Shown here piece by piece: positions 1 through 40,736 of a stretch of 41,169 nucleotides of DNA. Numbering within the stretch: the stretch's first letter is position 1; each line of letters begins with the position of its first letter. A model generated the notes under the pieces. That model saw only the letters and a list, made by a program, of their open reading frames with translations. It was not told where the DNA came from and did not search any database. This DNA comes from a virus. Location of the stretch: IMG/VR virus record IMGVR_UViG_3300005824_000019, positions 1 to 41,169 of that record, one strand, 5' to 3'. Made by a program: the position numbers and the translations under genes.

Positions 1-120
1 CCGATCATGCCCTGGGTCATCTGCTCGTCCAGGGTGGAACGCGAACGATCGCCCAGGAAATTGGAGGAGAAATTGAAGCGTTTCGGGTGGCCGGAGGCGG
101 ACAGCATATCGCCCTGGTTC
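1..120. repeat. Terminal direct repeat. Bases 1-120 are identical to 41050-41169, consistent with the assembly overlap of a circular or circularly permuted genome (unit length 41,049 bp).
   Basis: Compared base by base: 'ccgatcatgccctgggtcatctgctcg...catatcgccctggttc' occurs at both ends. Confidence 0.95.
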
Positions 121-3651: not shown

Positions 3652-3660
3652 AATGCTCTC

Positions 3661-5283: not shown

Positions 5284-5952
5284 TCAGAGGGCTGCAGTTT
5301 TCTTACGACGTGACCACAACAGGCCCAGCAGGCCGATGCCCATCAGCGGCATCGTCGCGGCTACAGGAACCTGTGCGCGAAACGGCTGCACGTCGGTGAT
5401 ACCGAACACGAAGTCGTTGTAGTCCTGGTCACCACCACCGAACTGGTCCTCGATGCCGACCACGAAGTCGAACACACCGGCCAGGCCCGTGCTGCCCACA
5501 GTATCGAACACCGCGAAGTGATCGAACCCGTCGATGTTCAGGGTCGGGTCAGAGTAGAACGTGCCTTCCGGGCTGGTCAGGAACACGCCGAATATCGGAT
5601 CGACCACCGCCAGGGTGGTGGCACCGATAGCGAACTGCCCAGCGGTGTAGCTCAGGGTGCGACTGGTGCCGACCGAGTCTGCGCCATTGAAGACGGTCAA
5701 CATGCGGCTGGGATCAAGCCAGTCGTAGATCCCCACCTCGTTCACACCGGCGTAGCCAGCAGACTCCAGAAAGATGAAGGCATTGATGTCATCGTTGATG
5801 CCATCGGTATCCGTCAGCTGGAAACCAATAACACCGGCGTCAGCCAGCGGATCTGCGCCTACCACCAGGGTGTTCAGCATCGGTGTTGACATTGCCATCG
5901 GTGCGACCGCCAGGGCGATCAATGTAGTAAATGTTGCGATTAACTTTTTCAT
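5284..5952 (-). CDS. Secreted DUF4114-like protein with an exosortase-type (PEP-CTERM / VPLPA-CTERM-like) C-terminal sorting signal.
   Basis: - Signal peptide: 'MKKLIATFTTLIALAVAPMAMS'.
- Core: 'FGVFLTSPEGTFYSDPTLNIDGFDHF...IEDQFGGGDQDYNDFVFGITDV', matching the DUF4114 signature as I remember it.
- C-terminus: 'VPVAATMPLMGIGLLGLLWSRRKKTAAL' (short motif + TM helix + basic cluster).
- Own SD AAGGA. Confidence 0.6.
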   Translation of the reverse strand: MKKLIATFTTLIALAVAPMAMSTPMLNTLVVGADPLADAGVIGFQLTDTDGINDDINAFIFLESAGYAGVNEVGIYDWLDPSRMLTVFNGADSVGTSRTLSYTAGQFAIGATTLAVVDPIFGVFLTSPEGTFYSDPTLNIDGFDHFAVFDTVGSTGLAGVFDFVVGIEDQFGGGDQDYNDFVFGITDVQPFRAQVPVAATMPLMGIGLLGLLWSRRKKTAAL

Positions 5953-6231: not shown

Positions 6232-7587
6232 CTACCCCAGGTACATGATGTAGTCAATGACGAAGTAGGGCTGCATCGTCGAGACCGTCGTCGTGTGGTT
6301 GTGGCCACCGGCGGAGCCCGAGCTGGCGGTGTGGCTGTGGCTGCCACCATTGGCCGCGACCGTGATCGTGTGGCTGTGCGCTGCGACGGTGTTGGTGTTC
6401 CCGTGGTTGTGGGCGGATGTCCCGCCGGCGGGTGCCGTGGCACCGATCCCGGACCCAGAGGCGGTGGCCTGCATCTTGTAGGCCCGGTTGTTGCCGACGT
6501 TATCCCCGAAGTAGGTGAGCCTGGAAAGGCCGCCTGGCGTGCCGCCGTCGCCGTTGGTGGACGCCGACAGGAACATGCCGTGCCCGTGCTGCGGCATCTC
6601 GGCCTGCGACAGGGCGTGCGACCCGGTGGTGTGGCTGTGCCCGCCGGCCGTCGCGCTGGTGGCGGTGTGGTTGTGGGTGCCGCCCGTGGCGACAGTCACC
6701 GTGTGGGTGTGGTTGGCGACGGTATTCGAGGTACCTGCGGCCGTCGTGGCACCGCCGGTCGCGCCCCGGGTGTATCCCGAGCCCGAGCCCAGTAGCGTGC
6801 GCCCTGTCAGGTTGGGGGTGCCGTTCTGGCCATCGCACAGGAACCAGCCCGCGGGGTACGCGCCAGGGTCGCCGAAGTAGGCGCGGATCTCGCCGATGAT
6901 GAACCCGCTCTCGCCGGCGGGACCCTGGGGTCCTTCCGGGCCGGTCGGTCCCCTGGGGCCCTCCGGGCCTTCCGGTCCCCGCTCACCCTGGGGCCCCTGA
7001 GCCTGGCCACGGTTGACCCAGTAGCCGGATTCCGTCCAGCTCAACAGGTCGCCAGCGGTCACCTCGACCGGCTGGCTGCCGGTGGTGACCGTGCCTGAAT
7101 CTGTAATCACCCAGGAGTCGCCCACGTTAATCAGGCCGACGTCGATTGCGTTGGCCTGGGCCACCGTCGCCTGGCCGATCAGGGTGATGCCGGAGCCGGT
7201 GTCGCCCTGCTCGCCCTTCTCGCCCTGGGGTCCGGTGTCACCCTTGGGTCCTTGCGGGCCCAGAGGGCCCTGGACGCCCTCTGGTCCCTCCACGCCCTGC
7301 GGGCCTTCCGTACCTGGTGTGCCGGCCGGGCCCTCTGGACCGATTGCTCCCTGGGGCCCTTGCGGGCCTACCGGCCCGACTGGACCGATGGGGCCCAGCG
7401 GGCCCTGGGGACCGGTGTCGCCCTGGAGACCTTGCTCACCGCGCAGCCCCTGGGGACCGATTGGGCCTGGTACGCCCTGCTCGCCCTGGGGTCCTTGGAT
7501 ACCACGCGGACCCTCTGGCCCTTCCGGGCCGACAGGACCCGGCGGGCCCTGGGGTCCGCCAGTAGTTGCTACCGGTGTATCACTCAT
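6232..7587 (-). CDS. Collagen-like tail fibre with a C-terminal phage tail-collar (MdpB-like) domain.
   Basis: About 130 aa of uninterrupted G-X-Y repeats ('[28 protein letters not shown]...') plus a second G-X-Y stretch. Collar motif '[23 protein letters not shown]'. His-rich ladder '[50 protein letters not shown]'. Confidence 0.8.
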
Positions 7588-10266: not shown

Positions 10267-11364
10267 TCACCCCGTGACGAAGTAGATAGTGTTGGCTTCG
10301 GGCGTGCCCGGGAGAGCGTCCACCACCTCGAACTTGTTTGTCTGCGCGCCATGCACCCCGTTGATCTTGAACAGCCCGGTAATCGACCCGTCGGGCCACA
10401 GATTCATAATCTGGGTCAGCTTCGTTTCCCCTTCGAAATTCACGTTGAACCGCATGTAGGACGGAGTGTTGCCTACTGTCCAATCGGACGCGGCGTTGCA
10501 GATTATGCGACCGCCGTTGGTTACTAACCCGCTCGGATCATTCCCTCTGAAGTCGATGCGGCCCAACGTCTGCCCGCTAGGGATTACACTGGCACCGTTC
10601 TCACGGGTCATCGTCATGGTGCCAGCTTCGTTATCCCCCTTCACATCGAGGACGGGCGCGTCGGCACTGAGTATTTCCAGCTTCGCCTGCGGATTGAGCG
10701 TGCCGATACCGACCAGGCCCTCCGCGGTAAACGTCACCCGCTCGGTCCCGTTGTAGGTGTATCGCATGCGGCCGGTGGCTATGTCGTGCTGGATTCCCCA
10801 CCTGTTGGTCTCGGCGGCGTCCCACAGGGCGAGGGTGGAGCCCGTGTCGTCGGAGATGCGAATCGTGCCTCCGTATAAACTACCCGCTACATGCAGCTGG
10901 TTCTTCGGGTCGGGCGTGCCGATGCCGACGTTACCGGTGTTGGTGTTGACGATGTCATCGGGAAGCGTGCCCGCCTCCCAGCCTATGCCGGTGTCGCCCT
11001 TCACGCCCTGGGGACCTATCGGGCCCTCTGGACCTACCGGGCCCTCCGGACCTACTGGACCGGTGTCACCAGGTATGCCCTGGATACCTTCGGGGCCTTG
11101 TGGCCCCTCATCGCCCTGGGGCCCTTCCGGGCCTGTCTGACCAGTCGAGCCCTGTTCACCCTGGGGGCCCTGGATACCCTGCGGTCCCGTGGGGCCTTCC
11201 GGTCCGACAAAGTTATAGTCCAGGGTGACCCAATCGGTCACGCCGTCGCCCACCTTCGCCTGGAGGGTGTCGGTCTCCAGGCCCATCTCGCCCTGCGCCA
11301 GGACGGGATTGGCCGTGGTCCAGTTGGCCGCGGTGTCGCGCCGTAGTTGAATTATCGAAGCCAT
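10267..11364 (-). CDS. Collagen-like tail fibre with an Mtd/HylP-type N-terminal domain.
   Basis: N-terminus '[45 protein letters not shown]' is the widespread fibre N-terminal motif (major tropism determinant N-terminal-like). It is followed by about 75 aa of G-X-Y repeats and a globular C-terminus. Confidence 0.7.
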
Positions 11365-12689
11365 TATGGCCCTCCTGCTGCGCTACCGCCGTCGATCAGC
11401 TGCGGCGGGGTATACACACTGTTAGCAAAGCCGCCGTCAACCATACCGCCGCCACCGCCCACACCACCAGGCACCCACTCGCCAGAATCAGATAGGACAT
11501 AACCTTCCTCCGTAATCGGGTCCGGCACCAGGCCGGTTGTGCCAGCACCCGCAAATATCGGGAACTGGTCGTCGTTCGGGTACGTCGGTCGATAGGCGTA
11601 CACGGTGAAATAGTTCGCGTTCTCGGCGTAGACCAGGGGCTGCGAAATGTCCGGCTCGACCTGGGTCAATGCCCCGGGCGTATCCTCGGACAGGTAGAAC
11701 CACTCATCCTGCTGGAGCCCGTGCGCGCGATTGTACCGCCCGGTGATCGCGTAGATGAACGTGTTCGCGTCCAGGATCTCCACCACCACACCCAGGGCGG
11801 TCGTCTCGACGTCGTTGGCCTGCGCCAGGACGAACCTGGTGCCGTCCCAGCGGATAGCGTCCAGGAACTGGAACCCGTGCCCTATCTGGACGACAGGGGC
11901 CTCGGTGGGGCCGCCTGAGCCGGTTCCTGGCGGTCCTTGCGGCCCTGGGTCGCCCTGGTCGCCTTTCGGGCCCTCTGGCCCCTCTGGCCCCTCCGGGCCT
12001 TCTGGTCCTGGGTCGCCCTGGATACCCCGGTCACCCTGGACACCCTGCGGGCCCTCAGATCCCTGGAGACCTTGCTCACCCTGGACGCCTTGCGGGCCCT
12101 CGGGCCCTGGCGGGCCGGGTACAGTTGATTCTGGGCCCTCTGGTCCCTGGGGGCCTTGTGGGCCGGCAGGACCTTGCGATCCCTGGGGCCCGGTCAGACC
12201 GCGGGGACCCTGGACGCCTTGCGGCCCTGGGGGCCCTGCTGGGCCGTCTTCTCCCGGCGGACCGGGTTCTCCTGGGGCACCCTCGGGTCCTGGGTCACCC
12301 TGCGGGCCCTCGGGTCCTGTCTCGCCCTGGGGGCCCTCTGGGCCTTCAGGACCGGTCGGTCCGGGGTTTCCCTGGGGTCCGGGTGGCCCGATAGCTCCCT
12401 GGGGCCCAGACGGCCCTGGCGGCCCTGCAGGGCCTGCTGCGGCCGCCCAGCTGCCGTCGTCGCGCAGGAACAGGGCGTTTTCGTTGACTGGATCAGGGAC
12501 CACACCGCTGGTGCCGGCACCCTCGAAGGTGGGCACGTTGCCGGAGGCGTTCTCTACCACCTCGGTGATGCCCTCGATCGAGCCACCGATCTGCTGCAGC
12601 TCGCGGTTCAGGTACCGGCGCAGCTCCTGGTCGTCGGCGGGCGCAGCCTGGGAAGGGCGGTAGGGGCGGAGTTTTATCTTATCGGCCAT
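11364..12689 (-). CDS. Collagen-like tail fibre (441 aa).
   Basis: About 175 aa of G-X-Y repeats with one break ('PESTVPGP'). The repeats are flanked by two copies of the motif '[11 protein letters not shown]...FLRDDGSW' / '[11 protein letters not shown]...VLSDSGEW'. Start taken at ATG 12689 ([10 protein letters not shown]); the track start at 12758 lies inside the upstream gene. Confidence 0.75.
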
Positions 12690-14409
12690 AGACTGGCAAC
12701 ACGTCGATGTCGATGCCAGTGAAGCGCATCGCGCGCACCTCGGCGAAATCCCACTCAATCGCCAGGTATCGGCCCGTGGTCCGGCAGTCGATCTTCACGT
12801 CGGACAGGGGGCCGTCTTCTGGCGCGGCATTTTCGGTCAGCATCCGGTAATCCTTCCACTCACCCCAGGCCGGTGCCGTCTCCAGGTTGGGAGACCAGCC
12901 CAGGCGGACCCGTAGCAGGCCCAGGCCGACAATATGCGGGTAGATCTGGCGGATATGCTTCCACAGGTTAGTTGTCAGCTGCGGGTTGATCTCGTCCAGG
13001 TCCATGTTGCTCTTGGTGACGATGAATCGCTTGTTCGGGGCCGGCGTTGACAGTTTGTTGGCCCGATACAGTCCGGTGGCGGTCAACCAGAACATCGAGA
13101 TCCGCACCGTCTGGCTGGTAGCACCGCCCTGGAGCTGGCCCCAGCGGGCGTCGCCGAATTCATCCCACCGCAACGTCTGGTCGTCCCAGGTCGGCCCCAG
13201 CTCGGTGAATTCATCCAGGTCGAGCCCGTAAACCATGCAGACGACGCGGTCCAGGCTCGGGCCGTTGTCGCGGTCGACCGCCGCGTCGATCACAGTGTAG
13301 TTATCGTCGTCGTAGTTGTAGACCAGCCCCAGGCGGACCGACTCCGGTATGCTTATATCCCGGCTCAGGACGTCCGGCAGGGCATCGTACTGGACGATCA
13401 CCTCGCGGTTGGTGTAATCGGTGATCACGCGGACGGAAGATTCCAGGTTTTTCACGTTGCGGTAGAACCAGTTGCGGACCCGGTCCTCCGAGACCTGCTT
13501 CACCGTGTTGCCGTCGTGGATGTACATGACGTCGGAGCCAACAACATAGTGTTGGTTCAAGAATTCAGCCGCACCGTAGAGCCCGACGCAGCCATAATCG
13601 AACAGCCGGCGGAAATCCATCACGAATCCGCCGCCCGTGAACAACATCTGGGTCGCCGCGCTGGAATTGTAGATGATCAGGCCCTCGCCCAGGGTCGCCG
13701 CCCACTGAATAGGCCCAGCCTCGAGCCCGATCTGGTTTTTACCGGCCAAATTGGTGGTCGAATTGTAATCCCAGACGTTGCCCTGGTCCTCCCAGAGGTC
13801 CGGAGACTGAAATCCGTCGCTCCACCACACCGTATTCGGCTGGAAGCTGTCATTCTGGGCCCCGATGCTCTCGGTGACGTTGCACGCGACCAGGAATGAC
13901 TTGTAGGGCACGATGAAACGCGCCCTGGCCTGGGTGTCGAAGTTTTCCGTACCGGTATCGCTCGTGATGATGCCCCAGTTGGGCATGTCGATGAACTTAT
14001 CGGTGACCGGGTCGAAGACCTGGGGGGCGTCGGTGCCGTTGTTGAAGACGCAGGTCAGGCCCCAGGCGAATGACTGCCAGTATCCGTCCTCCGGCGTGAG
14101 ATACCCGCTGCCTTCCCGGGTGACGTCCACCCAGGAGGATGTGTCCGAAGACGATAACCACAGTGATGCCCGGGTCGCGACCACGATCCGCACGATGTTG
14201 CCGTCGTAAAATTGCTGGGCCCACATCGCGCCGGCGGGGAAGTTACTGGTTTCTGTGTCGCTTACCAGATCTGGCTCCAGGCACTTCTCGATGTAGTTGC
14301 CCTTGAAGCGCACATTCCGCACCTGGTTCCAGGCACCGATCGGCAGCATCGACGCTGGGGTATCGTCAATGAACCCGAACTTGCCGTAGTTCCTCATCGG
14401 TACGAACAT
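12679..14409 (-). CDS. Large tail structural protein (576 aa), possibly a nozzle / tail-tubular-B analogue.
   Basis: Long ORF between the fibre genes and the collar protein. Assigned by size and position only; no motif recognised. Confidence 0.4.
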
Positions 14410-19231: not shown

Positions 19232-21313
19232 TTAGCCCTGAACGGTCACCTCTTTCTTGAGTTTCGCTTCCAGGTCGATCTCCTGCTGCTGGATGTCCTC
19301 GAGCCAGGTCTGCTTCTGCTCGGCCAGGAGGTTGTCGGCCATGTCGTCGGTCTGATCCCAGGTGAACTTCGCCCACTCACGCTGCTCGCGTGACCGGGTC
19401 GCCTCGGTCTGCGCCTGGAGGTTCTCGACCTGGATACCGGTGAGCTGGTCCTGCTTCTGCTGGGCCTGCTGCGCCTGCTGGCCTTGCTGCTGCGCCTTCT
19501 GCTGGTACTGCGGATCGGACGGTGCCAGCAGGATCTTGCTGGTGTCGCTTACGCCCATCATGTCGTAGATCATGTCGAACAGGGCGTGCTTCTGCTCCAC
19601 GCCGTAGGACAGGGCCATCTCGGGGTCCTGGGATACCACACCGTGCATGGTCAGGAGCTTGTTGCTCATGATCGCGCCTTCCTCGGGGGTGAGCGCGACC
19701 GCGGTCTCCATGTGGTTCTCGGTATCCTGCCACTGCTTCGGTACGATCGGGATCTGCTGCCCGGCGTATTCCTGGAGGGACTGGCTGTTATCGTTCTCCA
19801 TCCCCAGCTTCACAACGTACTGGCACAAAGGGATCAAGAAGGTATTCGCAAAATCCCGGGCTGCCGCAGTCACACGACGGGTACCGGCATTGGTAAGCCG
19901 GGCAATCATGTCGTCCGCGTTCTGGTACTTCACCGCGTCGGAGTTCATGCCCTTCGCCAGGGAAGACATGCCTGACCGTTCCTCGCCGTCCATCTTGAAC
20001 AGGTTGATCGCATCCATCGTCATCGGCGACAGCTGCGGTGTGGGCAGGGCCGCAACGGCGTCCATGCGCTTGGTCCATATCGTGGCACCGATCTTGTTGT
20101 CCAGGAGGTCCCTGGGGTTCTTGAGGGCACCGGATAGGGCCAGGGTGCGTGAGCTGTTGGCCATACTCTGGTTGTCGTAGACCATCCGCTTCAGGCCGGA
20201 CTGCGCCTTCTGGGTGAACGCCACGACGTCGGAGGTACACATACCGTGCTCGGCGTGCGAGATCTTCATCTCGGCCCACTCGAAGAAAGGCATCTCCTCC
20301 ACCACCTTGATGGCGTAGGGGTGTTCCTGGTCGTCGTGCTCCTCCTCCCATCGGAGGATCTCGCCGTGGCACCAATGGATCTCGTACAGGTTGAACCCTT
20401 CCTCGGGCTCAAAACCCTCCAGGTTCGCGCCCTCGAAATCCTCGGCCGATAGCCAGGTCCAGGTGCGGTAGAACGTGACCTGCTCCTGGGAATTTACCCG
20501 GCTGGTCCTGCCGTGCTGTGTCCAGGAGGAGTCGTGCGCCTTACGCGCGAAGTCTTCCTGGTTCCTACGCCACCGGTAATCGAGCTTGAGCCCCATCACC
20601 TGGTCGTATTCGTAGCCCATGTCGGTGAGCATGCCGCGGGAGATGGTCTCCTCGTAGCTGCACCACATGGAATCCTGGATGTAGGTCGCCTCGGGGTCGC
20701 GGTAGAAATTCTCGGGCTTGATCAGGGACAGGCGGGTGTAGCTGTCGTCCAGCTCGAGCTTGAGCATGCCGGAGACGATCTGCATCGGTCCCTGCGGGCT
20801 GGGCATCTCCTGGATCTCGGCAGCGGACGTGTCGACGCCGCGGATCTGCTCGCCCATCTGCTGCAGCTGCTGGTTGATCATGGGGGCCGGCATGCCGTTG
20901 ACCTGGATCTCCTGGACCCGGGTGTCGTCGTACCATTCCGCCAGGACCACGCACCGCTTGCCGACGAATGCGTCGTGCCAGGCGTCGCGGAAGATCGCCT
21001 CGTGCTTGTTGCGCTTGAATACCCGGTTGACGTAGACCGTCTTGCCCTCTGCCTCGCCAGGGTAGGGGCAGTTGCTGAACTTCACCACCTCCCGGCTGGA
21101 CAGGAACGTCTCGGAGAACACGGCCTTCTTGCTCTCGACCGCGTCCAGGACGTCGGGCGAGATGTAGGCCGACCGGCCAGGTATTTCATTCCCAATGGGC
21201 TGCAGCGAGTAGTAGCGCATGTTGCGCTCTCGCTGCTCGCCGACCTCGAAGCTGGTCGTGTCTGATTCGTTGACCTGGCCTTCGAGTACCTTGATCAACG
21301 TCATGTCAGACAT
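19232..21313 (-). CDS. Portal protein (693 aa).
   Basis: Size and position fit. N-terminal 'RERNMRYYSLQPIGNEIPGRSAYISPDVLDAVES' fits the P22-like portal N-terminal pattern. Q-rich C-terminal barrel-like tail 'QYQQKAQQQGQQAQQAQQKQDQ'. Confidence 0.8.
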   Translation of the reverse strand: MSDMTLIKVLEGQVNESDTTSFEVGEQRERNMRYYSLQPIGNEIPGRSAYISPDVLDAVESKKAVFSETFLSSREVVKFSNCPYPGEAEGKTVYVNRVFKRNKHEAIFRDAWHDAFVGKRCVVLAEWYDDTRVQEIQVNGMPAPMINQQLQQMGEQIRGVDTSAAEIQEMPSPQGPMQIVSGMLKLELDDSYTRLSLIKPENFYRDPEATYIQDSMWCSYEETISRGMLTDMGYEYDQVMGLKLDYRWRRNQEDFARKAHDSSWTQHGRTSRVNSQEQVTFYRTWTWLSAEDFEGANLEGFEPEEGFNLYEIHWCHGEILRWEEEHDDQEHPYAIKVVEEMPFFEWAEMKISHAEHGMCTSDVVAFTQKAQSGLKRMVYDNQSMANSSRTLALSGALKNPRDLLDNKIGATIWTKRMDAVAALPTPQLSPMTMDAINLFKMDGEERSGMSSLAKGMNSDAVKYQNADDMIARLTNAGTRRVTAAARDFANTFLIPLCQYVVKLGMENDNSQSLQEYAGQQIPIVPKQWQDTENHMETAVALTPEEGAIMSNKLLTMHGVVSQDPEMALSYGVEQKHALFDMIYDMMGVSDTSKILLAPSDPQYQQKAQQQGQQAQQAQQKQDQLTGIQVENLQAQTEATRSREQREWAKFTWDQTDDMADNLLAEQKQTWLEDIQQQEIDLEAKLKKEVTVQG

Positions 21314-21314
21314 A

Positions 21315-21884
21315 TCAGCTCACCGATACAGAGGAGACCAGGCTGTAGTCAGGATCAGCAGGGCTCAAGGTCAGTACATTGCCAGCGGCAACCGCGCGGA
21401 TGTGGACCTGCGGGTCCAGGGACGCCGCGCACACACCGGCTACCGTCGCGCCACTGTGCTGCCCTGGGGGCAGGGTGATCGGGTAGACGTGGGTGTCGGA
21501 CTGCCCGTCCGGGTCGGTCACGGTGCAGGTGAAGGTGATCACGGTGCCGCCTGGCCAGGTGCCGGTCGCGGTGTAGACGTTGTCCACCTCGGTGATGCTC
21601 GGCTGGTCGGGGACGCCGCCGGTGTTGGCCGCCAGGGCGATCAGGAACTCGGAGCCGCGCGGGCCCATATGGTTCAGGAAACCGTCCACGGCCGCCAGGG
21701 TCGGGAAGGTGTAGGTCTGGAGCATGGTCGCCAGGGATAGCGGCGGGGTGGTCGTGGTGTCGCCGTACTGGGCGATCAGGTTGAACCCACGCTGGCCGCG
21801 GTTGTTCGCCGCCGCCAGGATCGCGTCCCGGCCGGCTGCCTCTACCAGGAAGGGCACGCCTACGAAGTCACTCTTGAGGTACAT
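21315..21884 (-). CDS. Hypothetical protein (189 aa) between the terminase and portal genes.
   Basis: ORF with strong SD GGGAGGAAG. The C-terminal half is beta-rich ('TFTCTVTDPDGQSDTHVYPITLPPG'). Confidence 0.55.
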   Translation of the reverse strand: MYLKSDFVGVPFLVEAAGRDAILAAANNRGQRGFNLIAQYGDTTTTPPLSLATMLQTYTFPTLAAVDGFLNHMGPRGSEFLIALAANTGGVPDQPSITEVDNVYTATGTWPGGTVITFTCTVTDPDGQSDTHVYPITLPPGQHSGATVAGVCAASLDPQVHIRAVAAGNVLTLSPADPDYSLVSSVSVS

Positions 21885-21886
21885 GG

Positions 21887-22024
21887 TTACTTCCTCCCGG
21901 CGGGCATGCCGTCGTTAGTACGAGCTTTGCGCCCGCCTGGTACGAGTACCGGCCGCCCCTTGGGGCTGGTAGCCATTGATTTGTTGGGACCTGCGCTGCG
22001 TCGTACTGATCGTGTTTTTGCCAT
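21887..22024 (-). CDS. Tiny, highly basic protein (45 aa). It falls below the ORF-track length cutoff.
   Basis: Hand translation: MAKTRSVRRSAGPNKSMATSPKGRPVLVPGGRKARTNDGMPAGRK*. It has 12 K/R against 1 acidic residue. SD GAGGG lies 8 nt upstream, and the TAA stop lies 2 nt before the next ATG. Confidence 0.4.
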   Translation of the reverse strand: MAKTRSVRRSAGPNKSMATSPKGRPVLVPGGRKARTNDGMPAGRK

Positions 22025-22037
22025 GATGCTGCCCTCG

Positions 22038-23516
22038 TTACTCGAAGTATTTATCGGGTGGTGCCCAGGATTCTATACCAGCTGTCTCTAATTCCCAACT
22101 CTGCTCGAACAGGGCCTCACCCTCGCCTGCTCCCAGGAGCAGGTAATGGGACGCCTCGCAGACGTGCGAGGTCGGGCCTTTGTCGGGCTTATCGGTGAAC
22201 CGTTCGGCCCCGACCACCTGGATACGCCTGAAACAATACTCCCCTGCCAGGCCTCTGATCAAGGTGGTGCAGCTGGGGTCGACCAGGAGCCCGGGCTGCC
22301 CCTCGATCAGGACGGACAGCTGCGCGTCCAGGGCCGCGTAGCGGATCTGCGGGTCGTTGGTGTAGGCCGGGGTGCCGTAGATGCCGCCCATCGCCAGGAG
22401 GTCGAAGGCGGTGTCGTCGCTCGATTGCGTACCGTAGTCGCCGCTCGGGTCGCCGGTCACGTCGGCGATCTCGAAGCCCTGGAAGTGTTCGTTGAGGTAG
22501 TCCTTCAGCAGGGGCCCGAACTTGTCCGCGCCCATGTTGGTGGTCACCAGCTCCTTGAGGAAGTACCACTGCCCGTTGACCTGGCGTTGGCCGATGACCG
22601 CGGCCGGCGTGCGCCCGAAGTCGATGCCGACGTACAGGGGCAGGCCGTAGGTGGCCTTGACCGGGGCGACGTGGATCTGCTCGTTGAAGCTGGGATGGAC
22701 AGGCCGGCCGTCGCTGTGGTGGACGAACTCGTTGGCCAGGTTCTGCCTGATCCAGGACTCCTTCTTGCCGGAGCACTGGTCCAGGTAGTAATTCTTGGGC
22801 AGGTTCTTGCGGTTCTCTGCCAGGGGGTTCTCGACCCAGGTGTTGCCCTTCATGATCACGCCGCCAGGCTGGATGCCGATCCACCAGTTGGGTGGTGGTG
22901 TGTGCGCCAGGGCGATCTCAGCCAGCCAGTGATCCTTCGCCACCGCGTTGCTGGTGCCCAGGCACTCGAACTTGGCGTTCGGCACCTCGACCTTGGCCGG
23001 GAATCGCTTCACCCGGCCGATCAGCATGTCCAGGTTGGTCTTGTGGAACTCGCCCAGCTCGTCGACCCAGATCCCGGACAGCTGCATGCCGCGGGCCTTG
23101 ACCACATCCTGCTCGCCGTCGAAGGACCTGAACATGATCTCGCCCTCGACGGTGGTGCCGTCGGCGCGTCGGTACTTGCACCGCCAGGCGATGACCTTAC
23201 CCATGCCCCACTCACCGATGCCCATGTCATCGACCACCGCCTTGACGTCGGGGATGGTGGTGGACAGCAGGTCCGGCAGGCTGTTACGGGCGATGCACCA
23301 CCTGGACTTGCGGACGCCGGCGGCGTTGGGTGTCTGCTCATGGATCGAGCGCAGGACCTGGGAGATCGCCGCGAAGGTCTTGCCGCTGCCCAGGGGGCCG
23401 ACGACGATACGCACAAACTCGTTGCGCCGGTGGAACTCCGCCAGGACCGAGCCCTGGGGCTTGTACTTGAGCTTGACGCCAGGGGCGTCGACGCTCCTGC
23501 CGGCGGCCGCGCTCAA
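22038..23516 (-). CDS. terL: Terminase large subunit.
   Basis: Walker A 'VVGPLGSGKTFA', Walker B 'GIWVDELGEF', and a C-terminal nuclease-sized domain. TTG start overlapping the upstream stop (TTGA). Confidence 0.85.
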   Translation of the reverse strand: MSAAAGRSVDAPGVKLKYKPQGSVLAEFHRRNEFVRIVVGPLGSGKTFAAISQVLRSIHEQTPNAAGVRKSRWCIARNSLPDLLSTTIPDVKAVVDDMGIGEWGMGKVIAWRCKYRRADGTTVEGEIMFRSFDGEQDVVKARGMQLSGIWVDELGEFHKTNLDMLIGRVKRFPAKVEVPNAKFECLGTSNAVAKDHWLAEIALAHTPPPNWWIGIQPGGVIMKGNTWVENPLAENRKNLPKNYYLDQCSGKKESWIRQNLANEFVHHSDGRPVHPSFNEQIHVAPVKATYGLPLYVGIDFGRTPAAVIGQRQVNGQWYFLKELVTTNMGADKFGPLLKDYLNEHFQGFEIADVTGDPSGDYGTQSSDDTAFDLLAMGGIYGTPAYTNDPQIRYAALDAQLSVLIEGQPGLLVDPSCTTLIRGLAGEYCFRRIQVVGAERFTDKPDKGPTSHVCEASHYLLLGAGEGEALFEQSWELETAGIESWAPPDKYFE

Positions 23517-23689
23517 CTGTAGTCTCTCACGTTGGCGTCCTCTGCCGCCTCCCTGGCGTCGCGCTCCTGGGATTCCAGGGTGAGGCAGGGCACATCCTTC
23601 CAGGGGGCGTAGGCCGCGTCCCTGGTCTGCAGGATGCGACGCAGGGTGCCGCTCTCGTCGATGCGCTCGATAAACCGCAGCTCGATCAT
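23513..23689 (-). CDS. Hypothetical protein (58 aa) between terS and terL. It falls below the ORF-track length cutoff.
   Basis: Hand translation: MIELRFIERIDESGTLRRILQTRDAAYAPWKDVPCLTLESQERDAREAAEDANVRDYS*. ATGA overlap upstream and TTGA overlap with terL. Confidence 0.4.
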   Translation of the reverse strand: MIELRFIERIDESGTLRRILQTRDAAYAPWKDVPCLTLESQERDAREAAEDANVRDYS

Positions 23690-23958
23690 CGCAGCACCGC
23701 CTGCTCGTTACCGCAGCTGGTGCACTGCCAGACGAATGCGCCAGGGCGCGTCTCCATCCGCAGGTACTTGTCGCTGCAGCCGTTGGCGCACTTGTTGCTG
23801 TTGGTCATGAACCCGACCATGTTGGGTGTGGAGCGGAAGGTGTGACACTTCTGCCTGGCCAGCTCGTGCTTGAGTGCCAGGATCTCCTCGTGCTGCTCCA
23901 GGATCACGCGCTTCTGCAGGTCGATGACCCGCTGCGCTTGCTCAATCTGTTCCGTCAT
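23686..23958 (-). CDS. Protein with a coiled coil plus a Cys-rich putative zinc ribbon (90 aa).
   Basis: 'MTEQIEQAQRVIDLQKRVILEQHEEILALKHELARQKCHTF...KCANGCSDKY...WQCTSCGNE'. The ATG at 23958 lies 6 nt after GAGGGGG. The longer track ORF overlaps terS. Confidence 0.55.
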   Translation of the reverse strand: MTEQIEQAQRVIDLQKRVILEQHEEILALKHELARQKCHTFRSTPNMVGFMTNSNKCANGCSDKYLRMETRPGAFVWQCTSCGNEQAVLR

Positions 23959-24379
23959 CGGCATCCCCCTCGAACCCGCTGAAGTCGATCTCCACCAGGC
24001 GCAGCTCACCGCTGTGATCAATCTCGCGGCGGTCGCGGTACTGATCCGGATGTTGATTTTTGAGCATGAACGCCAGGGTGTTGCCGTTGGCTCCATCGTA
24101 CTTGCCGCGGGCCTGGCCCTGGGCCGTCGACTCCCACCACTCGAGGCTGTGCCCCCGCGCGCGCGTTAAGGCGTCGGAAAACGCGGGATGCACTTCCGCC
24201 CACTCGTACAGCGTGTCACGGTGCACGCCGCAGACGTTGGCCATCGCTGTAATGGATTTACCCTGCTTGCCGATCTTGACTACCAGGTCGCAATACTCAG
24301 GTTTGTAGGCCGTCGGGCGGCCCGTCCTGTTGGGTTGGTTGCGCTTGAGCGCGGGGTTTTTCTTCGCTGCTCCGGCCAT
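23942..24379 (-). CDS. terS: Terminase small subunit.
   Basis: 'NRTGRPTAYKPEYCDLVVKIGKQGKSITAMANVCGVHRDTLYEWAEVHPAFSDALTRARGHSLEWWE' matches the common HTH-type TerS pattern (GRP..Y.PEY...G.s....A...gV...T.Y.W...hp.F..A......WWE). The ATG at 24379 lies 5 nt after GGAGGA. Confidence 0.75.
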   Translation of the reverse strand: MAGAAKKNPALKRNQPNRTGRPTAYKPEYCDLVVKIGKQGKSITAMANVCGVHRDTLYEWAEVHPAFSDALTRARGHSLEWWESTAQGQARGKYDGANGNTLAFMLKNQHPDQYRDRREIDHSGELRLVEIDFSGFEGDADDGTD

Positions 24380-24380
24380 G

Positions 24381-24635
24381 TCAGTCCTCCAACTCATCCG
24401 CGCGCATGTCGATCTCCTCGCGCTCTGCCGGGTAGACTATCACAGGTTGGCTGCCGTCGGCGATGTAGGCCAGGCCGCGGATCACGTTGAACTCTACCCA
24501 CTCGACGCCACTGTCCCGGTCGCCCTTGTTCGCGAAGACGTCGATCAGCTTCTCGTAATCGTACACCACGCGAAACGGATCATCGGCATACCCGATGATC
24601 GCGTCGTCGGCCCCATCAATCACGATGGCACTCAT
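24381..24635 (-). CDS. Acidic hypothetical protein (84 aa).
   Basis: ORF with an ATGA overlap upstream. D/E-rich. Confidence 0.55.
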   Translation of the reverse strand: MSAIVIDGADDAIIGYADDPFRVVYDYEKLIDVFANKGDRDSGVEWVEFNVIRGLAYIADGSQPVIVYPAEREEIDMRADELED

Positions 24636-24805
24636 GCGGCGGTAGGGGGTTCAGGTTTGGACAGGTCGGCGTACAACCGCTCCAGGGCGTAGAGTTTGTT
24701 CTCCAGCTCCAGGATGCGATCCTCCAGGTCCTTGTACCCTGGCGGCCGGGTGTTCAACTCGGTGGGCGCGCCCTTGCTGGTGGTGTTGGTGTAACTCGAT
24801 CTCAC
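24632..24805 (-). CDS. Hypothetical protein (57 aa) that looks like a coiled coil. It falls below the ORF-track length cutoff.
   Basis: Hand translation codon by codon: (GTG)MRSSYTNTTSKGAPTELNTRPPGYKDLEDRILELENKLYALERLYADLSKPEPPTAA*. GTGA overlap upstream and ATGA overlap downstream. Confidence 0.4.
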   Translation of the reverse strand: MRSSYTNTTSKGAPTELNTRPPGYKDLEDRILELENKLYALERLYADLSKPEPPTAA

Positions 24806-25065
24806 GGTTTCATCTCCTCGCCTGTGACCGGGTCTACCATCGTACCCTGGGCAGCCTGCCGTTGTACATCCTCGTCCCTGGCCAGCTTGAACAGCTCCAG
24901 GGAAACGCGCAGCACGTCATCGTCCCCCAGCTCGAGCCCCTCACGCTCGGCGATGCCGTGCAGGGCCACCGCCTGGCTGGTGACCCAGTACCCCGCGTGC
25001 ATCTGCCACTCCATCATCGCCTTGACCTGGTCATCAGTCAGTTGCAGTCCGTCTGGTTTTTCCAT
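24802..25065 (-). CDS. Hypothetical protein (87 aa).
   Basis: ATG at 25065 (MEKPDGLQLTDDQVKAMMEW...), 2 nt after the upstream TGA and preceded by GAGGAGAAG. Confidence 0.5.
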   Translation of the reverse strand: MEKPDGLQLTDDQVKAMMEWQMHAGYWVTSQAVALHGIAEREGLELGDDDVLRVSLELFKLARDEDVQRQAAQGTMVDPVTGEEMKP

Positions 25066-25067
25066 GC

Positions 25068-25376
25068 TCACTTCTCCTCGAAGTAATTGCGCTGCCGCAG
25101 CAGCTTGTTGTCGACGGCGAAGATGCCGTCGGGTTCCTGGACCACATCGGTGATGCACACCGCCTGGTCCTCGAATTGGGTCACCACCTTGCCCGGGTCG
25201 TTCAAGGCCCGGGTCAGGTCGGTCAGCAGATCCTCCTGGCCGGGTGACAGGCTGCCACCGGTGAACGACATCATCGTGTTGGCCGAGATCAGCTGCCCGT
25301 CACACTGCTGCCCCCAGGCCGGCCTGCTGGCCAGGGTCGCCAACACCGCCACCTGAATTAATTTCCTGCGTTCCAC
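25068..25376 (-). CDS. Putative secreted/periplasmic protein (102 aa).
   Basis: The GTG at 25376, 5 nt after GGAG, gives '(M)ERRKLIQVAVLATLASRPAWGQQ...', which looks like a signal peptide. The track start at 25424 adds 16 residues. Confidence 0.45.
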   Translation of the reverse strand: MERRKLIQVAVLATLASRPAWGQQCDGQLISANTMMSFTGGSLSPGQEDLLTDLTRALNDPGKVVTQFEDQAVCITDVVQEPDGIFAVDNKLLRQRNYFEEK

Positions 25377-36819: not shown

Positions 36820-36998
36820 GGCCGGGCTGCCGCGGCACGCCCTACCTGTCGGTGAAGACCGGTAACTACTCACTGCGAAATGCAAAGGACCTGGCCGCGC
36901 TCCAGGATCTGATAAACCGGCTGCAGAACATCCACAGCTGGCAGAAGAAGATCCACGCGCACCGGAAGCGTCAATCCAGCGCGCCGTCGTCCTCTTGA
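36774..36998 (+). CDS. Basic hypothetical protein (74 aa), the last gene of the plus-strand arm.
   Basis: ATG preceded by GAGAGA. Overlaps the previous ORF by 46 nt. Its 3' end overlaps the convergent minus-strand gene by 28 nt. Confidence 0.4.
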   Translation: MRSNYGTRRNATITVRPGCRGTPYLSVKTGNYSLRNAKDLAALQDLINRLQNIHSWQKKIHAHRKRQSSAPSSS

Positions 36999-38248
36999 CC
37001 AAGTACCGCGGCTCCACCCATAACATAATAGGGGATGCCGCTTTCCTTCAGCCTGGCCTTCGTTTCAGGCGTTAGCTGTACCACCCAATACTTGCCCAGC
37101 GGGCGACTACCATCACCCGGGCTCGAGGGGCTCCAGCCTTTCGGCCTGGTGTTGCTCAGGTCCACCAGCTTCGGCTCCAGGCCGAGCTGCTTCCACCGCT
37201 TGTCCCTGGGCATCCGCTTGTCGTACTGGTTCTTGTACATCTGCAGTGAGCCCAGGGCCTGCTTCGCCTCGGCCTGCTCGCGTCGCACGCCCTCCCGGCC
37301 GAAGGAGTTACCCTCGAACAGTTTGGCGTCCGCCGCCGCGGTGTCCAGGACTGACTGGTAATGCTCCGGGCTGCGCTTGAAGTAGCGACGGTACTGGACG
37401 TCCGAGCTGGGCCAGGCCAGCGCGCCCATGTCGCCCTCCACCGCGTCGTTCAGGTAGTTGGCCATCGCCTGCCACTCCATGCGGTCCTTGCCTGGCATGT
37501 TCGCCCGGCCGCGGGTAGCCACGTCCTGGTTGTAGCTCGCCAGCTCCTGGAGCCCCCAGTCCAGGTCGCCGCCCTGGGGGATCTCCTGGCGCAGCTGCTC
37601 GATCTCGTACTGGGCCTGCCCCAGGTCGTCGGACATCGACCCGGGCATGTAGGTCATCTCCTCGATCGGGGTGGAGTCGTAGCCCAGGTAGGGATTCACA
37701 CGCCGCCAGGGGCCCGTCCTGGCCCCCTCCGGGGTGTACAGGGCCGCCTCGCTCTGGGTCATACCCTCCGGGTCCCACCGGTCGCGAATGTTGCCCTTGA
37801 GATCGCTCTGGACCTCGTCCAGGACCTGGGTGCGCCCGACGTTGGTGTTCTCCAACATGCCGCCGCGAGTGTGCTGCCGGTAGCCAGGGTAACCGCTGAA
37901 GTGATCGGAAGGATCTCGCGGGTCCCACATGGGCTCCGCCTCCACATAGTTGCGGTACTGGGACAGGCCGGGTGTGGCGTACTCGTCGTAGTCGTTGCCG
38001 GCTCCCAACCGTTGGGGCATCGGCATCGGTTGCTCACTGAGCCAGCCCTGGATGTCCTCCTTGGCGATCGCCCGGCCACCGGACCGGTCGTACTGCCCGC
38101 CCAGGAATTCGTCCAGGCCGCGATCCTCGATCTCGTTCATGTTCGCCAGGGGCGATTTCTTGAGCTGGGCCATCCACTGCTGCGCGGTGGCCTTCGCCTG
38201 GGGCAACTCGTTGATTGCTTTCTCGAGCCAGGAAACAAAACGCGGCAT
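36971..38248 (-). CDS. Presumed ejected/internal protein (425 aa), the last gene of the minus-strand arm. Resembles a domain associated with polyvalent proteins.
   Basis: The ATG at 38248 (MPRFVSWLEKAINELPQAKATAQQWMAQLKK...) is coupled by TAATG to the upstream ORF. 'TQVLDEVQSD' and the N-terminal 'AxxWxxxL...EDIQGWL' pattern recall domains seen in large phage/plasmid polyvalent proteins (memory only). Confidence 0.6.
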   Translation of the reverse strand: MPRFVSWLEKAINELPQAKATAQQWMAQLKKSPLANMNEIEDRGLDEFLGGQYDRSGGRAIAKEDIQGWLSEQPMPMPQRLGAGNDYDEYATPGLSQYRNYVEAEPMWDPRDPSDHFSGYPGYRQHTRGGMLENTNVGRTQVLDEVQSDLKGNIRDRWDPEGMTQSEAALYTPEGARTGPWRRVNPYLGYDSTPIEEMTYMPGSMSDDLGQAQYEIEQLRQEIPQGGDLDWGLQELASYNQDVATRGRANMPGKDRMEWQAMANYLNDAVEGDMGALAWPSSDVQYRRYFKRSPEHYQSVLDTAAADAKLFEGNSFGREGVRREQAEAKQALGSLQMYKNQYDKRMPRDKRWKQLGLEPKLVDLSNTRPKGWSPSSPGDGSRPLGKYWVVQLTPETKARLKESGIPYYVMGGAAVLGQEDDGALD

Positions 38249-38559
38249 TATCGGCCCCTCCGCCAGGGGTTCTGCGATACGCGCTCGCCCCACTTCTGCA
38301 GGCCCTTACCGACGCCGTAGCCGAGCCCGCCACCCAGGCCGGCGTTGATCAGTCGATCTGTGGGGTCCTCCTGGTAGTACAGGGCACCCTCGGCTGCGGC
38401 GGTGGCTCCAGCACCCAGCGGGCCCAGGGTGCCGTACAGCGCGCCTGTGGCCAGGTAGGGCAGCATACTGCCTGCCATAGTCGCTCCGACGTACTCGTCC
38501 TCCACAGGCGCGAACACGCGGTCGTTGGCCTTCTGCCGCGCCTGGTTCTGCCGCGCCAC
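38248..38559 (-). CDS. Gly/Ala-rich ORF (103 aa from a GTG; 76 aa from the ATG at 38478). It lies in the -1 frame relative to the 3' tail of the 795-aa gene, and its status is unresolved.
   Basis: Coding-like sequence ('ARQNQARQKANDRVFAPVEDEYVGATMAGSMLPYLATGALYGTLGPLGAGATAAAEGALYYQEDPTDRLINAGLGGGLGYGVGKG'). It ends in TAATG coupling to the next gene. The ATG at 38478 lies 5 nt after GGAG. Confidence 0.45.
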   Translation of the reverse strand: MARQNQARQKANDRVFAPVEDEYVGATMAGSMLPYLATGALYGTLGPLGAGATAAAEGALYYQEDPTDRLINAGLGGGLGYGVGKGLQKWGERVSQNPWRRGR

Positions 38560-40736
38560 TCCTCGTCGATGCCCAGGGCGGACCCGAACAGGTCCCGGGC
38601 CCCGGTGATCAGCTTGTCGGTCTCCTTGCCGGCGGCCAGGATACCCGCCTGCAAGCTCTCAGGGAGCCCTCCCAGGGCCCCTTCCATTAGGGCGGGGCGT
38701 TCGTACATCCAGGCGTCGGGGTCCGCCAGGGGCGCGCCAGGCTGCCCTGTGCCGTAGTCGTAGGCCTGGGCCTCCTGTGTGTCTGTAAGAGCACCCAGGC
38801 CCACTGCCGCGGCTGTACCGCCTGCCAGTATATTTTCAGAACCCGGGTCCTTGAACTGTGCGTTGACTGACCGGATGCGTGCCGGGTCATGGGTCGCCTG
38901 GGCGATCACCCCGTCATCCTCCTTGAACCGGAAACTGTCGTAGCCCATACCCTGCAGGTCGAACAGCAGACCGGTCTCAGGGTCGTCCAGGATCTCCCAG
39001 TCCATGTCCAGCTCCGGGTCGTACAGGTAACTGTCCCGCCTGGGCGCATCATCCCCCAACATTTCATCCCAGAAATTCTGTGCCTCGTCTGGGCCATGAC
39101 CATCCATCTCGGCCCGGTTTGCCCAGCCGCCTTTCTCATTGAACAGGTCTATGGCGAGCTGCCTGTGCTCTGGGTTGTCTACCATGTCCAACTGGTTGCC
39201 GGGGCGCATGTACAGCGGCATCACGTTGGCCCCCTCCCGAACACCGGCGAACATCGAGGCGTAGTCTGGGTCATCTTCCGCTGCGTAGATCATCCCAGCG
39301 CGACCAGGATCGAACGCCTCGATGTCGTTGGCGGTGCCGTGGAACAGCCGCCTGCTTGTATCAAACCCTTGCTCGGCAGCACGGCCCAAGCGATCGGCGA
39401 CGTACTTGCCGCTGTCAGGTATGACCGTCGGGGGCTCGCGCCAGGCATTATCCTCGCCGAGGGAGTTGGCCGGGTGCTCTCCGAATGCCGGGGACACCTG
39501 GCCCTCGTCGAACGGGCGGAACTCCACCTGGTCGTAGTTGTCACCATACCCGGCGGTGATGCCGCCGTCGTAGCCGTTGGCCTTCATCAGCTGGATAGTC
39601 TCGGGGTCGTTGAAGACCTCGAAAGCTGGCACGTCCAGCTGGCGCAGGGCGTCGTCGGGCAGCTGGTCGATGCTGTCCACGCCGTACTCCTCCAGCATAT
39701 CGTCGATGTACTCTGACTCGTTCAGGCCGGCCAGGTCAGTGAACACCTTCTTGGCATGATCGAACCCGGTGGCCTTCTCCAGGTCAGTGAACGGCAGAAA
39801 CGGGTCCTCCGGGTTGTTGATCACCGGGTTGTCGATACGCACGTTGGAAGGGTAGACGCGCGGCTGCACTGGTACGTCGCTGCTTACATTCGGGCTCATG
39901 GCGTAGTGGTTAGCCGTTTTGGCGTCGCCGAAGGATAGCGCGCCCAGGCGCGTTTGGAATTTCTCGCCAAGGTCGGCGAGCGCGCCGTGCTCCCCGCGGA
40001 ACGCCCGGTACAGGGGCATCGCCTCCGCCTCCTCGGTATCAGACAGCGCGCCAGCACCGACTGCCGTCGCCGCCAGGGCGGGGACATATCCTTTCCGTTT
40101 CTGCAGGTTACGGAGCCTGGGCAGGTCCTCGGAGCCAGAGCCCCTGTTCAGGTCCCGTACTTCTGCGTCGTCCAGGATACGGTTCACCCGCATATCGCCG
40201 CCGATCAACCAGTCCCCGGTCATGTTGGGGTTGGTCTTGTATCGGTAGTGGCCACCGTAGGGCACCTGGTCGGTGATGTGTGCTGTTCTCGATAGGGGCT
40301 TACCCGCCTTGGTCATCTCGGCGCGGCTGTTGGCCACCTTCTGCCAGTCGACTATGCCGGGCATCTCGATCTCGGCCCACACCTGGTCGTCGGGGCGGTA
40401 GTTGGGCTTCGTCGGGATCTTGCCGTGCTCGGTGGCCTTGCCGCCGATGTGGGTCGCCAGGGGATACTCGCCCGCGTGCCAGCCCGGGCGATACGCCAGG
40501 GGCCCTATGCTCGACTTCACCTTGCCGGTGTCAGTCAGTGCGCCGGCCTCCGCCTTGAGCCACTCGCCCAGGGGGACCTTCTGGTCGGCATTGACGAATA
40601 GCGGGAACAGGTCGTCGCCCTTCTTGCGGAACAGCTTGTAGGCTTTGACAGGGTCGGCTGTGGCGTCCATCAGCTCGTCGGGGTCCAGGCCGGCAGCCTT
40701 GAGCATGCGGGCCAGAGTGCTGGTGTATTTGGACAT
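38349..40736 (-). CDS. Large multidomain presumed ejected protein (795 aa as read) with two tandem ART-like (ADP-ribosyltransferase, polyvalent-protein type) modules. This assignment is a hypothesis.
   Basis: - Module 2: 'RRLFHGTANDIEAFDPGRAGMIYAAEDDPDYASMFAG...GYDSFRFKEDDGVIAQATHDPARIRSVNAQF'. This is an H...Y...E-like layout resembling 'FHGT...YF...E..vF.p.qI.S'.
- Module 1 (paralogous): 'MPLYRAFRGEHG...LSFGDAKTANHYA...GYDGGITAGYGDNYDQVEFRPFDEGQV'.
- The final ~70 aa (RGRTRRGRRPTTACSRLW...) look non-coding. Confidence 0.55.
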   Translation of the reverse strand: MSKYTSTLARMLKAAGLDPDELMDATADPVKAYKLFRKKGDDLFPLFVNADQKVPLGEWLKAEAGALTDTGKVKSSIGPLAYRPGWHAGEYPLATHIGGKATEHGKIPTKPNYRPDDQVWAEIEMPGIVDWQKVANSRAEMTKAGKPLSRTAHITDQVPYGGHYRYKTNPNMTGDWLIGGDMRVNRILDDAEVRDLNRGSGSEDLPRLRNLQKRKGYVPALAATAVGAGALSDTEEAEAMPLYRAFRGEHGALADLGEKFQTRLGALSFGDAKTANHYAMSPNVSSDVPVQPRVYPSNVRIDNPVINNPEDPFLPFTDLEKATGFDHAKKVFTDLAGLNESEYIDDMLEEYGVDSIDQLPDDALRQLDVPAFEVFNDPETIQLMKANGYDGGITAGYGDNYDQVEFRPFDEGQVSPAFGEHPANSLGEDNAWREPPTVIPDSGKYVADRLGRAAEQGFDTSRRLFHGTANDIEAFDPGRAGMIYAAEDDPDYASMFAGVREGANVMPLYMRPGNQLDMVDNPEHRQLAIDLFNEKGGWANRAEMDGHGPDEAQNFWDEMLGDDAPRRDSYLYDPELDMDWEILDDPETGLLFDLQGMGYDSFRFKEDDGVIAQATHDPARIRSVNAQFKDPGSENILAGGTAAAVGLGALTDTQEAQAYDYGTGQPGAPLADPDAWMYERPALMEGALGGLPESLQAGILAAGKETDKLITGARDLFGSALGIDEEWRGRTRRGRRPTTACSRLWRTSTSERLWQAVCCPTWPQARCTAPWARWVLEPPPQPRVPCTTRRTPQID

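Follow-up and report, generated by a model that had tools for sequence, protein, structure and literature searches.

ADP-ribosyltransferase-type domains of a phage polyvalent protein

The polyvalent proteins of phages are predicted to be injected together with phage DNA and to modify host molecules. The commonest macromolecule-modifying enzymes predicted in them are the ART-PolyVal domains (Pfam family PF18760), ADP-ribosyltransferases (ARTs) of the Tox-ART-HYD2 clade with a His in strand 1, a Tyr in strand 2 and an Asp in strand 5; a single polyvalent protein is known to contain from one to twelve ART copies (Iyer et al., 2017; PMC5512222). The literature searched yielded no experiments on any ART-PolyVal domain. 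Here, we describe a polyvalent protein encoded in IMG/VR virus record IMGVR_UViG_3300005824_000019, the whole of which (41,169 nucleotides) is referred to as the window. As read, its gene is an open reading frame (ORF) of 795 amino acids (aa) at 38349..40736 on the minus strand, to which all coordinates below refer unless stated otherwise. With a one-nucleotide deletion corrected, the intact gene would span 38248..40736 and encode 829 aa. The modules of the protein are, in order, a conserved N-terminal module (N-domain), linker 1, two ART-type modules (M1 and M2), linker 2 and a C-terminal tail. The protein is a new member of the class already described (Iyer et al., 2017), and in the interpretation that we favour as the probable one, it carries two tandem ART-fold domains, is packaged, is ejected with the DNA and modifies host targets.

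The features shared with ART-PolyVal proteins (PMC5512222) are the match of M2 to the family model, a partial match of the M1 family, the multi-domain layout, the presence of more than one ART copy, the phage origin and the virion-gene context. M1 differs by an invariant Arg that may occupy the strand-1 position, a His three residues on and an E/Q-x-E motif before the last core strand. Among solved structures, the closest to M2 and the second closest to M1 is AcrIF11 (PDB 6KYF), an anti-CRISPR mono-ADP-ribosyltransferase of phages and plasmids with a small diphtheria-toxin-like ART fold and a variable helical insert. The enzyme is active, its H-F-H-D site is non-canonical and the catalytic Asp is essential (PMC12421852). 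AcrIF11 differs from the window protein in being expressed as a protein of its own, the two share no detectable sequence similarity, and Cas8f is not indicated as a target of the window protein. A functional precedent is T4 Alt, an ART that is delivered from the capsid and modifies host proteins as infection begins. Alt differs in belonging to the Alt/VIP2 R-S-E-2 clade, which does not occur in polyvalent proteins, and no sequence or fold match to it was obtained.

Two remotely paralogous ART-type modules

M1 (aa 240-436; 39429..40019) is a divergent ART-PolyVal-type domain that matches phrog_8642 (E 8.2e-14), and M2 (aa 437-640; 38817..39428) is an ART-PolyVal domain in which the Pfam match covers aa 463-625 (38862..39350). 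When compared singly by BLASTP, the two modules are collinear, with 22% identity over 187 aa (E 0.032). Alignment of the two family profiles by hhalign gave P values of 1.3e-5 in global (155 columns) and 2.5e-5 in local mode, and a hidden Markov model (HMM) of the M2 family recovered M1 of the window (E 3.3e-5), along with 42 of 63 M1-family proteins whose E-values fell within the inclusion threshold. These profile-profile and HMM cross-matches therefore identify M1 and M2 as real remote paralogues. Such a pair had been proposed earlier from the DNA letters without any search (the sequence-only reading), and every string quoted there is present in the ORF at 38349..40736.

The M2 family alignment (A4) was built with fixed model columns from the matches of a first search, and the M1 family alignment (A3) from an exhaustive search, which found 354 representatives at 50% clustering; a word-index search gave three matches. 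Within the whole protein, M2 matches PF18760 at E 2.3e-7 with 32.1 bits, a borderline pass of the gathering cut-off of 31.2. M1 alone gave no match to PF18760 at E ≤ 10 and falls below the gathering threshold. However, 20 of 31 sampled M1-family members match this model at E ≤ 1 (best E 9e-10), and M1 therefore represents a sister subfamily partly reached by the Pfam model. Judged by these matches, M2 is an ordinary but borderline ART-PolyVal domain, and M1 a member of a distinct and large sister subfamily. M1-type domains occur as stand-alone proteins of about 200 aa or within proteins of up to 5812 aa, and their common motifs are [YF]RGEHG, S-F-G, A..YA, GYDG and E-x-E-[YF]-R-V-F.

Structural models made with AlphaFold (AF2) were confident for both modules, with predicted local distance difference test (pLDDT) values of 91.6 for M1 and 83.4 for M2. 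A Foldseek comparison of M1 with the PDB gave as best match a chain from the pre-ejectosome of cyanophage A4 (E 5.8e-4), followed by AcrIF11 (E 0.1) and CRM197, together with more than 40 tankyrase chains. Among predicted viral structures (BFVD), M1 found its own family in jumbo phages (TM-score 0.83) and neighbours named ART-PolyVal-like or PolyVal ADP-ribosyltransferase (E 1.6e-6 to 1e-3). The best PDB matches of M2 were AcrIF11 (E 1.9e-3, prob 0.99) and MbcT (E 1.2e-2); further neighbours were tankyrases, Arr, Tpt1/KptA, PARP1 and CRM197, all with the ADP-ribosyltransferase fold. Family-profile sequence searches of the PDB with M1 and M2 gave nothing meaningful, and fold comparison alone was informative. 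The ART-type assignment made by the sequence-only reading is upheld by the Pfam match of M2, the matches of M1-family members and the fold neighbours of both models. Both the Pfam search and the structure prediction had been named there as checks; the former gave a match for M2 itself and, on the side of M1, for family members, and the latter returned solved neighbours of ADP-ribosyltransferase fold for both modules.

The neighbours of M2 also bear on the reaction that these domains may catalyse. MbcT (PDB 6FKG), the second-best neighbour, has in common with M2 an ART-like NAD+-binding fold, but it is an NAD+ phosphorylase that degrades NAD+, forms part of a toxin-antitoxin pair and has no sequence similarity to M2. 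With MbcT, Arr and Tpt1/KptA in this list, and with ART-PolyVal substrates never determined in any experimental paper found, both modules might use NAD+ without being protein ADP-ribosyltransferases. They would then degrade NAD+ (as MbcT does), modify nucleic acids or small molecules (DarT, Arr) or act as RNA 2'-phosphotransferases (Tpt1/KptA). We consider this rather unlikely, since AcrIF11, the tankyrases and diphtheria toxin, which are also matched, are protein-modifying enzymes, the family has been grouped with protein-modifying clades (PMC5512222), and a phage, which depends on a living host, would be harmed by NAD+ degradation.

Candidate active sites

In M2, the candidate site residues are H466, Y484, D600 and E606. 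H466 lies within strand 1 and is replaced by Thr in 8 of 54 relatives, with His in 46. At Y484, in strand 2, the relatives have mostly Phe (40 of 54, with Tyr in four; aromatic in 44). D600, the Asp of a G-Y-D motif, stands just before the late strand (Asp in 27 of 37 relatives) and E606 just after (Glu in 32 of 36). Two aligned relatives that lack E606 have a Glu at position 612, which corresponds to E405 of M1, and this suggests that the acid has moved. The His and the Glu proposed for M2 by the sequence-only reading are thus conserved residues, whereas its Tyr is mostly Phe in relatives. The H-Y-E layout that it took as the signature is not the one published for this family, which is H-Y-D (PMC5512222).

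The candidate site of M1 consists of R247, H250, S268-F269, Y278, D390 and Q403-x-E405. Across 31 diverse relatives with about 35% overall identity, R247, G248, F269, Y278, D390, G391 and E405 are invariant; E249, H250 and G251 are nearly so, and Ser or Thr occupies position 268 before F269. Y278 falls in the helix after the strand 2 position, and D390 is the Asp of the G-Y-D motif before the late core strand. The strand-2 residue is therefore aromatic in both modules rather than strictly Tyr (Y484 in M2, the invariant F269 in M1), and each has two candidate late acids, D390 and E405 in M1 and D600 and E606 in M2, the latter pair both conserved in the M2 subfamily.

The residue at the strand-1 position of M1 depends on the method. 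One HMMER alignment (family member P0241) and the strand register place there an Arg equivalent to R247, whereas hhalign pairs H250 with the His of M2. The statement of the sequence-only reading that M1 has Arg in place of His is accordingly supported by the former and contradicted by the latter. Its further suggestion, that this copy may be inactive, is unlikely to be right, since the Arg is invariant across a large family and is accompanied by a near-invariant His and an invariant Glu, which points to function rather than decay. In the same way, invariant residues at canonical positions in a family of such low overall identity speak for a working site and not a decayed copy. Because the candidate site residues are conserved, and given that AcrIF11 is active with a non-canonical site, M1 and M2 are both likely to be active enzymes.

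ARTs of the R-S-E group have an Arg in strand 1, S-T-S in strand 2 and [QE]-x-E before strand 5. Look-alikes of these motifs occur in the M1 family as YRG, S-x-S-F and E-x-E, the last of which is Q-x-E in the window. Membership of M1 in the R-S-E group (Alt/VIP2, cholera-toxin-like) was nevertheless rejected, all significant matches being to the ART-PolyVal/H-Y-E clade and none to Alt, VIP2, C3 or cholera toxin. The M1 segment ALSFGDAKTANHYA and the strand VEFRPFD also resemble the PARP sequences GIYFAD..SKSANY and NEYIVYD, a resemblance that serves as a lead and not as a test.

Several observations weigh against two active ART domains in an intact, ejected protein. The Foldseek TM-scores to solved ARTs are low (about 0.3-0.5), with E-values mostly above 1e-3. 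M2 exceeds the Pfam cut-off by less than 1 bit, and does so in the context of the whole protein; alone, it scores 27.0 bits. M1 has, by HMMER, Arg and not His at strand 1. M2 has a non-acidic residue, A612, where M1, the PARPs and some ART-PolyVal relatives have a strand-initial Glu; its own relatives mostly have Asn. The one-nucleotide deletion in the window copy would, if real, truncate the C-terminal tail. Lastly, the domain of the A4 pre-ejectosome that M1 matches could be purely structural.

This last point concerns the best solved match of M1, chain B of PDB 9k3a (TM-score 0.41), which belongs to a visualised internal ejection protein of a podovirus and has no significant sequence similarity to M1. 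The chain is probably gp27. In Anabaena phage A-4L (L006), gp27 (20116..25269, minus strand) contains the motifs LYHGT, GTYFS and GVDALTDGD at aa ~1420-1615, a stretch that aligns by hhalign with the profile of the M2 family (P 3.3e-4). A-4L gp28 was also considered as the matching protein and set aside, as it has no ART motif or HMM signal, unlike gp27. In the paper on the A4 structure, the outer layer is reported to bind DNA, an ART-like domain is unmentioned and no enzymatic role is proposed. One or both modules of the window protein could likewise be catalytically dead and have a structural or DNA-binding function in an internal core (pre-ejectosome), in keeping with the A4 match of M1 and its DNA-binding outer layer, with the missing strand-initial Glu of M2 and with the Thr that replaces His in some M2 relatives. 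We regard this as distinctly unlikely, because the canonical NAD+-site positions are invariant among the 31 M1 relatives, M2 retains H466, Y484, D600 and E606, and M1-type domains that stand alone or form part of giant non-core proteins would be unsuited to a role in the core.

N-terminal module and linkers

The N-domain (aa 26-212; 40101..40661) is a very strongly conserved module that matches phrog_30118 (E 1.9e-58) and contains the motifs AYRPGWHAG...ATHIGGK and GGHYRYKTNPNMTG. Its identity is 60-67% across at least 120 proteins, and it is encoded in at least 558 IMG/VR stretches and in many unrelated phages. Among the best 120 homologues of the window protein, it is the sole common part, and its position in multi-domain proteins varies from residue 17 to about 1000. 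No match to the N-domain was found in Pfam, NCBIfam or PDB sequences, including a family-profile search of the PDB. Neither it nor the linkers match a Pfam model, a result that does not extend to the domains of large polyvalent proteins catalogued by Iyer et al. (2017). With its invariant His, Arg, Trp and Glu, the N-domain may be an enzyme or serve to target the protein to the capsid.

The partners of the N-domain include PF18760, PF06414, PF05951/PF08291, PF00583, PF18823, PF19846, PF23802 and others; by type, they include ART-PolyVal domains, zeta toxins, M15 peptidases, GNAT acetyltransferases and inorganic pyrophosphatases (InPase). Polyvalent proteins have at least two effector-type domains that recombine freely, and the window protein has three globular modules. 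The polyvalent character proposed by the sequence-only reading is supported by the occurrence of the N-domain with many different effector domains. In the nearest relatives (P0002 and P0003), the N-domain is followed by a linker, an M2-type ART, a second linker and an unrelated tail. Because these relatives have the M2-type ART only, M1 looks like an insertion between linker 1 and M2 in the window phage.

Another two-ART arrangement was observed at a separate locus (P0099; ENA ERZ1426856), where two adjacent ART-PolyVal genes of 489 and 866 aa directly follow an SU10-type portal gene. The 866-aa protein also has an inorganic pyrophosphatase domain.

The two linkers of the window protein bracket the ART pair. 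Linker 1 (AVGAGALSDTEEAEA, aa 225-239; 40020..40064) lies ahead of M1 and linker 2 (AVGLGALTDTQEAQA, aa 644-658; 38763..38807) behind M2, and not one before each module as had been thought. The two are identical at 11 of 15 residues and 29 of 45 bases, and nine of the 11 identical residues are specified by different codons. Thus, the peptide is conserved and the similarity is not that of a recent DNA repeat. In each linker, an acidic motif, (S/T)D/P-E-E/D-A, comes after residues rich in Gly, Ala and Leu. The type occurs 30 times in the best 120 homologues, compared with 5.1 times in shuffled sequences (about six-fold), often at domain borders. P0002 and P0003 have the same linker after the N-domain and an analogous second one. 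A linker-like motif also stands at the C-termini of the two neighbouring ORFs in the window, the 381-aa ORF ending at 40737 (GLGAGTVAGGGLLADQEPQP) and the ~425-aa ORF ending at 36971 (GGAAVLGQEDDGALD). Candidate roles are those of a flexible linker, a cleavage site or a recombination junction.

The divergence of M1 and the recurrence of the linkers may be taken together in a joint interpretation, which we consider unlikely, that M1 is an undescribed catalytic variant on the HYD2/PolyVal scaffold and that the linkers are functional elements. The constellation of Arg (plus His), Ser and E/Q-x-E in M1 would then be like that of enzymes of the cholera-toxin type, with a target chemistry different from that of M2. 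The linkers would be sites of proteolytic release, or junctions for cassette exchange that let phages swap effector modules. If this were true, a single protein injected by the phage would contain two ADP-ribosyltransferases that differ in mechanism.

Extent of the gene

The end of the 795-aa ORF at 38349, which the sequence-only reading had accepted, appears to be an artefact. At 38550/38549, the window reads GGCAGAAC, whereas a near-identical contig of the Joint Genome Institute (JGI; L005, protein P0273) reads GGCAAGAAC, with one extra A; this contig continues in frame to a stop at 38248, with 98% identity across the junction. Therefore, the gene would end at 38248 and encode 829 aa. In the window, the frame is lost at about aa 730, which affects the last ~66 residues of the 795-aa ORF, and the true frame downstream of the deletion is that of ORF 38248..38559. 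Either an error of assembly or true variation may account for the deletion. A programmed -1 frameshift was rejected, since the sequence GAG GAG TGG CGC GGC AGA offers no slippery heptamer and the near-identical contig has one more A. A plot of third-position G+C content (GC3) did not discriminate between frames. The C-terminal tail (38248..38762), within which the deletion lies between 38550 and 38549, is rich in Gly and Ala and shows no similarity to the tails of P0002 and P0003. Overall, the sequence-only reading stands in its paralogous modules and quoted strings, and is revised in its linker placement, its H-Y-E signature and the end of the ORF.

Genome setting, probable packaging and proposed role

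The first and last 120 bases of the window are identical (1..120 and 41050..41169), giving a genome unit of 41,049 bp. Because this end overlap is exact, the genome is circular or terminally redundant, and the window is a complete metagenomic phage genome. The minus strand forms one long operon of terminase and portal, head, tail and ejection-like genes, followed by a 381-aa gene, the polyvalent gene and a last gene; the replication module is on the plus strand. Large terminase (22038-23516) and portal (19232-21313) are followed in this late operon by genes for a scaffold, the major head protein, an SU10-type adaptor, tail proteins and collagen-like fibres. The portal has at most ~25% identity to that of any cultured phage, and the phage is podovirus-like, without a close cultured relative.

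Just upstream of the polyvalent gene in the operon are three genes of 360, 420 and 519 aa (833..4743), two of which match PHROG families annotated as DNA ejection protein (phrog_4287, E 1.4e-8; phrog_26400, E 2.2e-20). The 381-aa gene spans the circular junction, running from its ATG at 833 through 121 to a 3' part at 40737..41169, and its stop abuts the ATG of the polyvalent gene. The last gene of the operon (36971..38248; ~425 aa) starts from an ATG at 38248 that overlaps the corrected stop of the polyvalent gene, and it gave no family match in the family-library scans. An NCBIfam scan of six operon proteins gave no matches, and no promoter-like or terminator-like sites were found on the strand of the polyvalent gene within 36971..41169.

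Elsewhere in the operon, a 222-aa ORF (5284..5952) amid the tail-fibre genes matches DUF4114 (E 4e-8) and has a C-terminal PEP-CTERM sorting motif (E 9.8e-5) that exceeds the Pfam cut-off and is unusual in a phage gene. The tail-fibre genes at 6232..7587, 10267..11364 and 11364..12758, which are consecutive or nearby, match collagen-like fibre PHROGs.

A comparison of the region 36971..41169 plus 121..833 with a relative, L001 (4308..8154), showed that the genes surrounding the polyvalent gene have changed order. L001 has a homologue of the 381-aa gene (61% identity) within this cluster, but it comes two genes after the polyvalent gene, whereas in the window phage the 381-aa gene comes before; the last gene of the window has no counterpart in L001. 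The homologues of the 360-, 420- and 519-aa genes are upstream of the polyvalent gene in L001 too, with their order kept.

From this gene context, we infer that the protein is packaged and ejected. The polyvalent gene stands at the end of the late operon, after the ejection-protein-like genes. In precomputed Pfam context for three long contigs, the N-domain gene directly follows the portal gene in two unrelated phages and the large-terminase gene in a third. Such positions next to portal and terminase genes agree with a published argument for head-packaged ARTs (PMC9503650). Packaging also finds support in the best solved match of M1, which comes from the visualised pre-ejectosome of a podovirus. 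A BLAST search of the structural proteins of the window against 80 IMG/VR N-domain loci gave isolated matches alone (the adaptor at one locus and the 381-aa ORF at four) and was uninformative, because the phages are too different.

The two modules could also be real ART-fold enzymes in a protein that is not packaged. It would then act in the infected cell after late synthesis, like T4 ModA/ModB or AcrIF11, or in the next host via lysogeny or pseudolysogeny. This finds some support in that a packaging signal or MuF domain was not detected in the family-library scans, that the solved structure nearest to M2 belongs to AcrIF11, an effector that is expressed and not packaged, and that the position of the gene varies among relatives. 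However, an effector encoded in the late operon would be made just before lysis, with little time to act, and adjacency to portal and terminase genes, with ejection-like genes upstream, is typical of minor-head or ejected proteins. We therefore give this alternative a small chance.

In the favoured reading of a packaged dual-ART protein, the protein would be made alongside the virion proteins, join the ejection proteins in the capsid and pass into the cell together with the DNA. There, the two ART domains may each ADP-ribosylate, with NAD+ as donor, a host target of their own, for instance a component of defence, transcription or translation. Such an action would resemble that of T4 Alt or AcrIF11.

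Implications for phage ART proteins

The existing picture of polyvalent proteins is unchanged by this locus, which fills in a known class. The M1 subfamily, with its 354 representatives, many of them in giant proteins, is missed by the Pfam model, and the ART content of phages is thus probably under-annotated. With its small size (829 aa), clean boundaries and two divergent ART copies, the protein described here is a potential test case for the packaging, activity and targets of this class.

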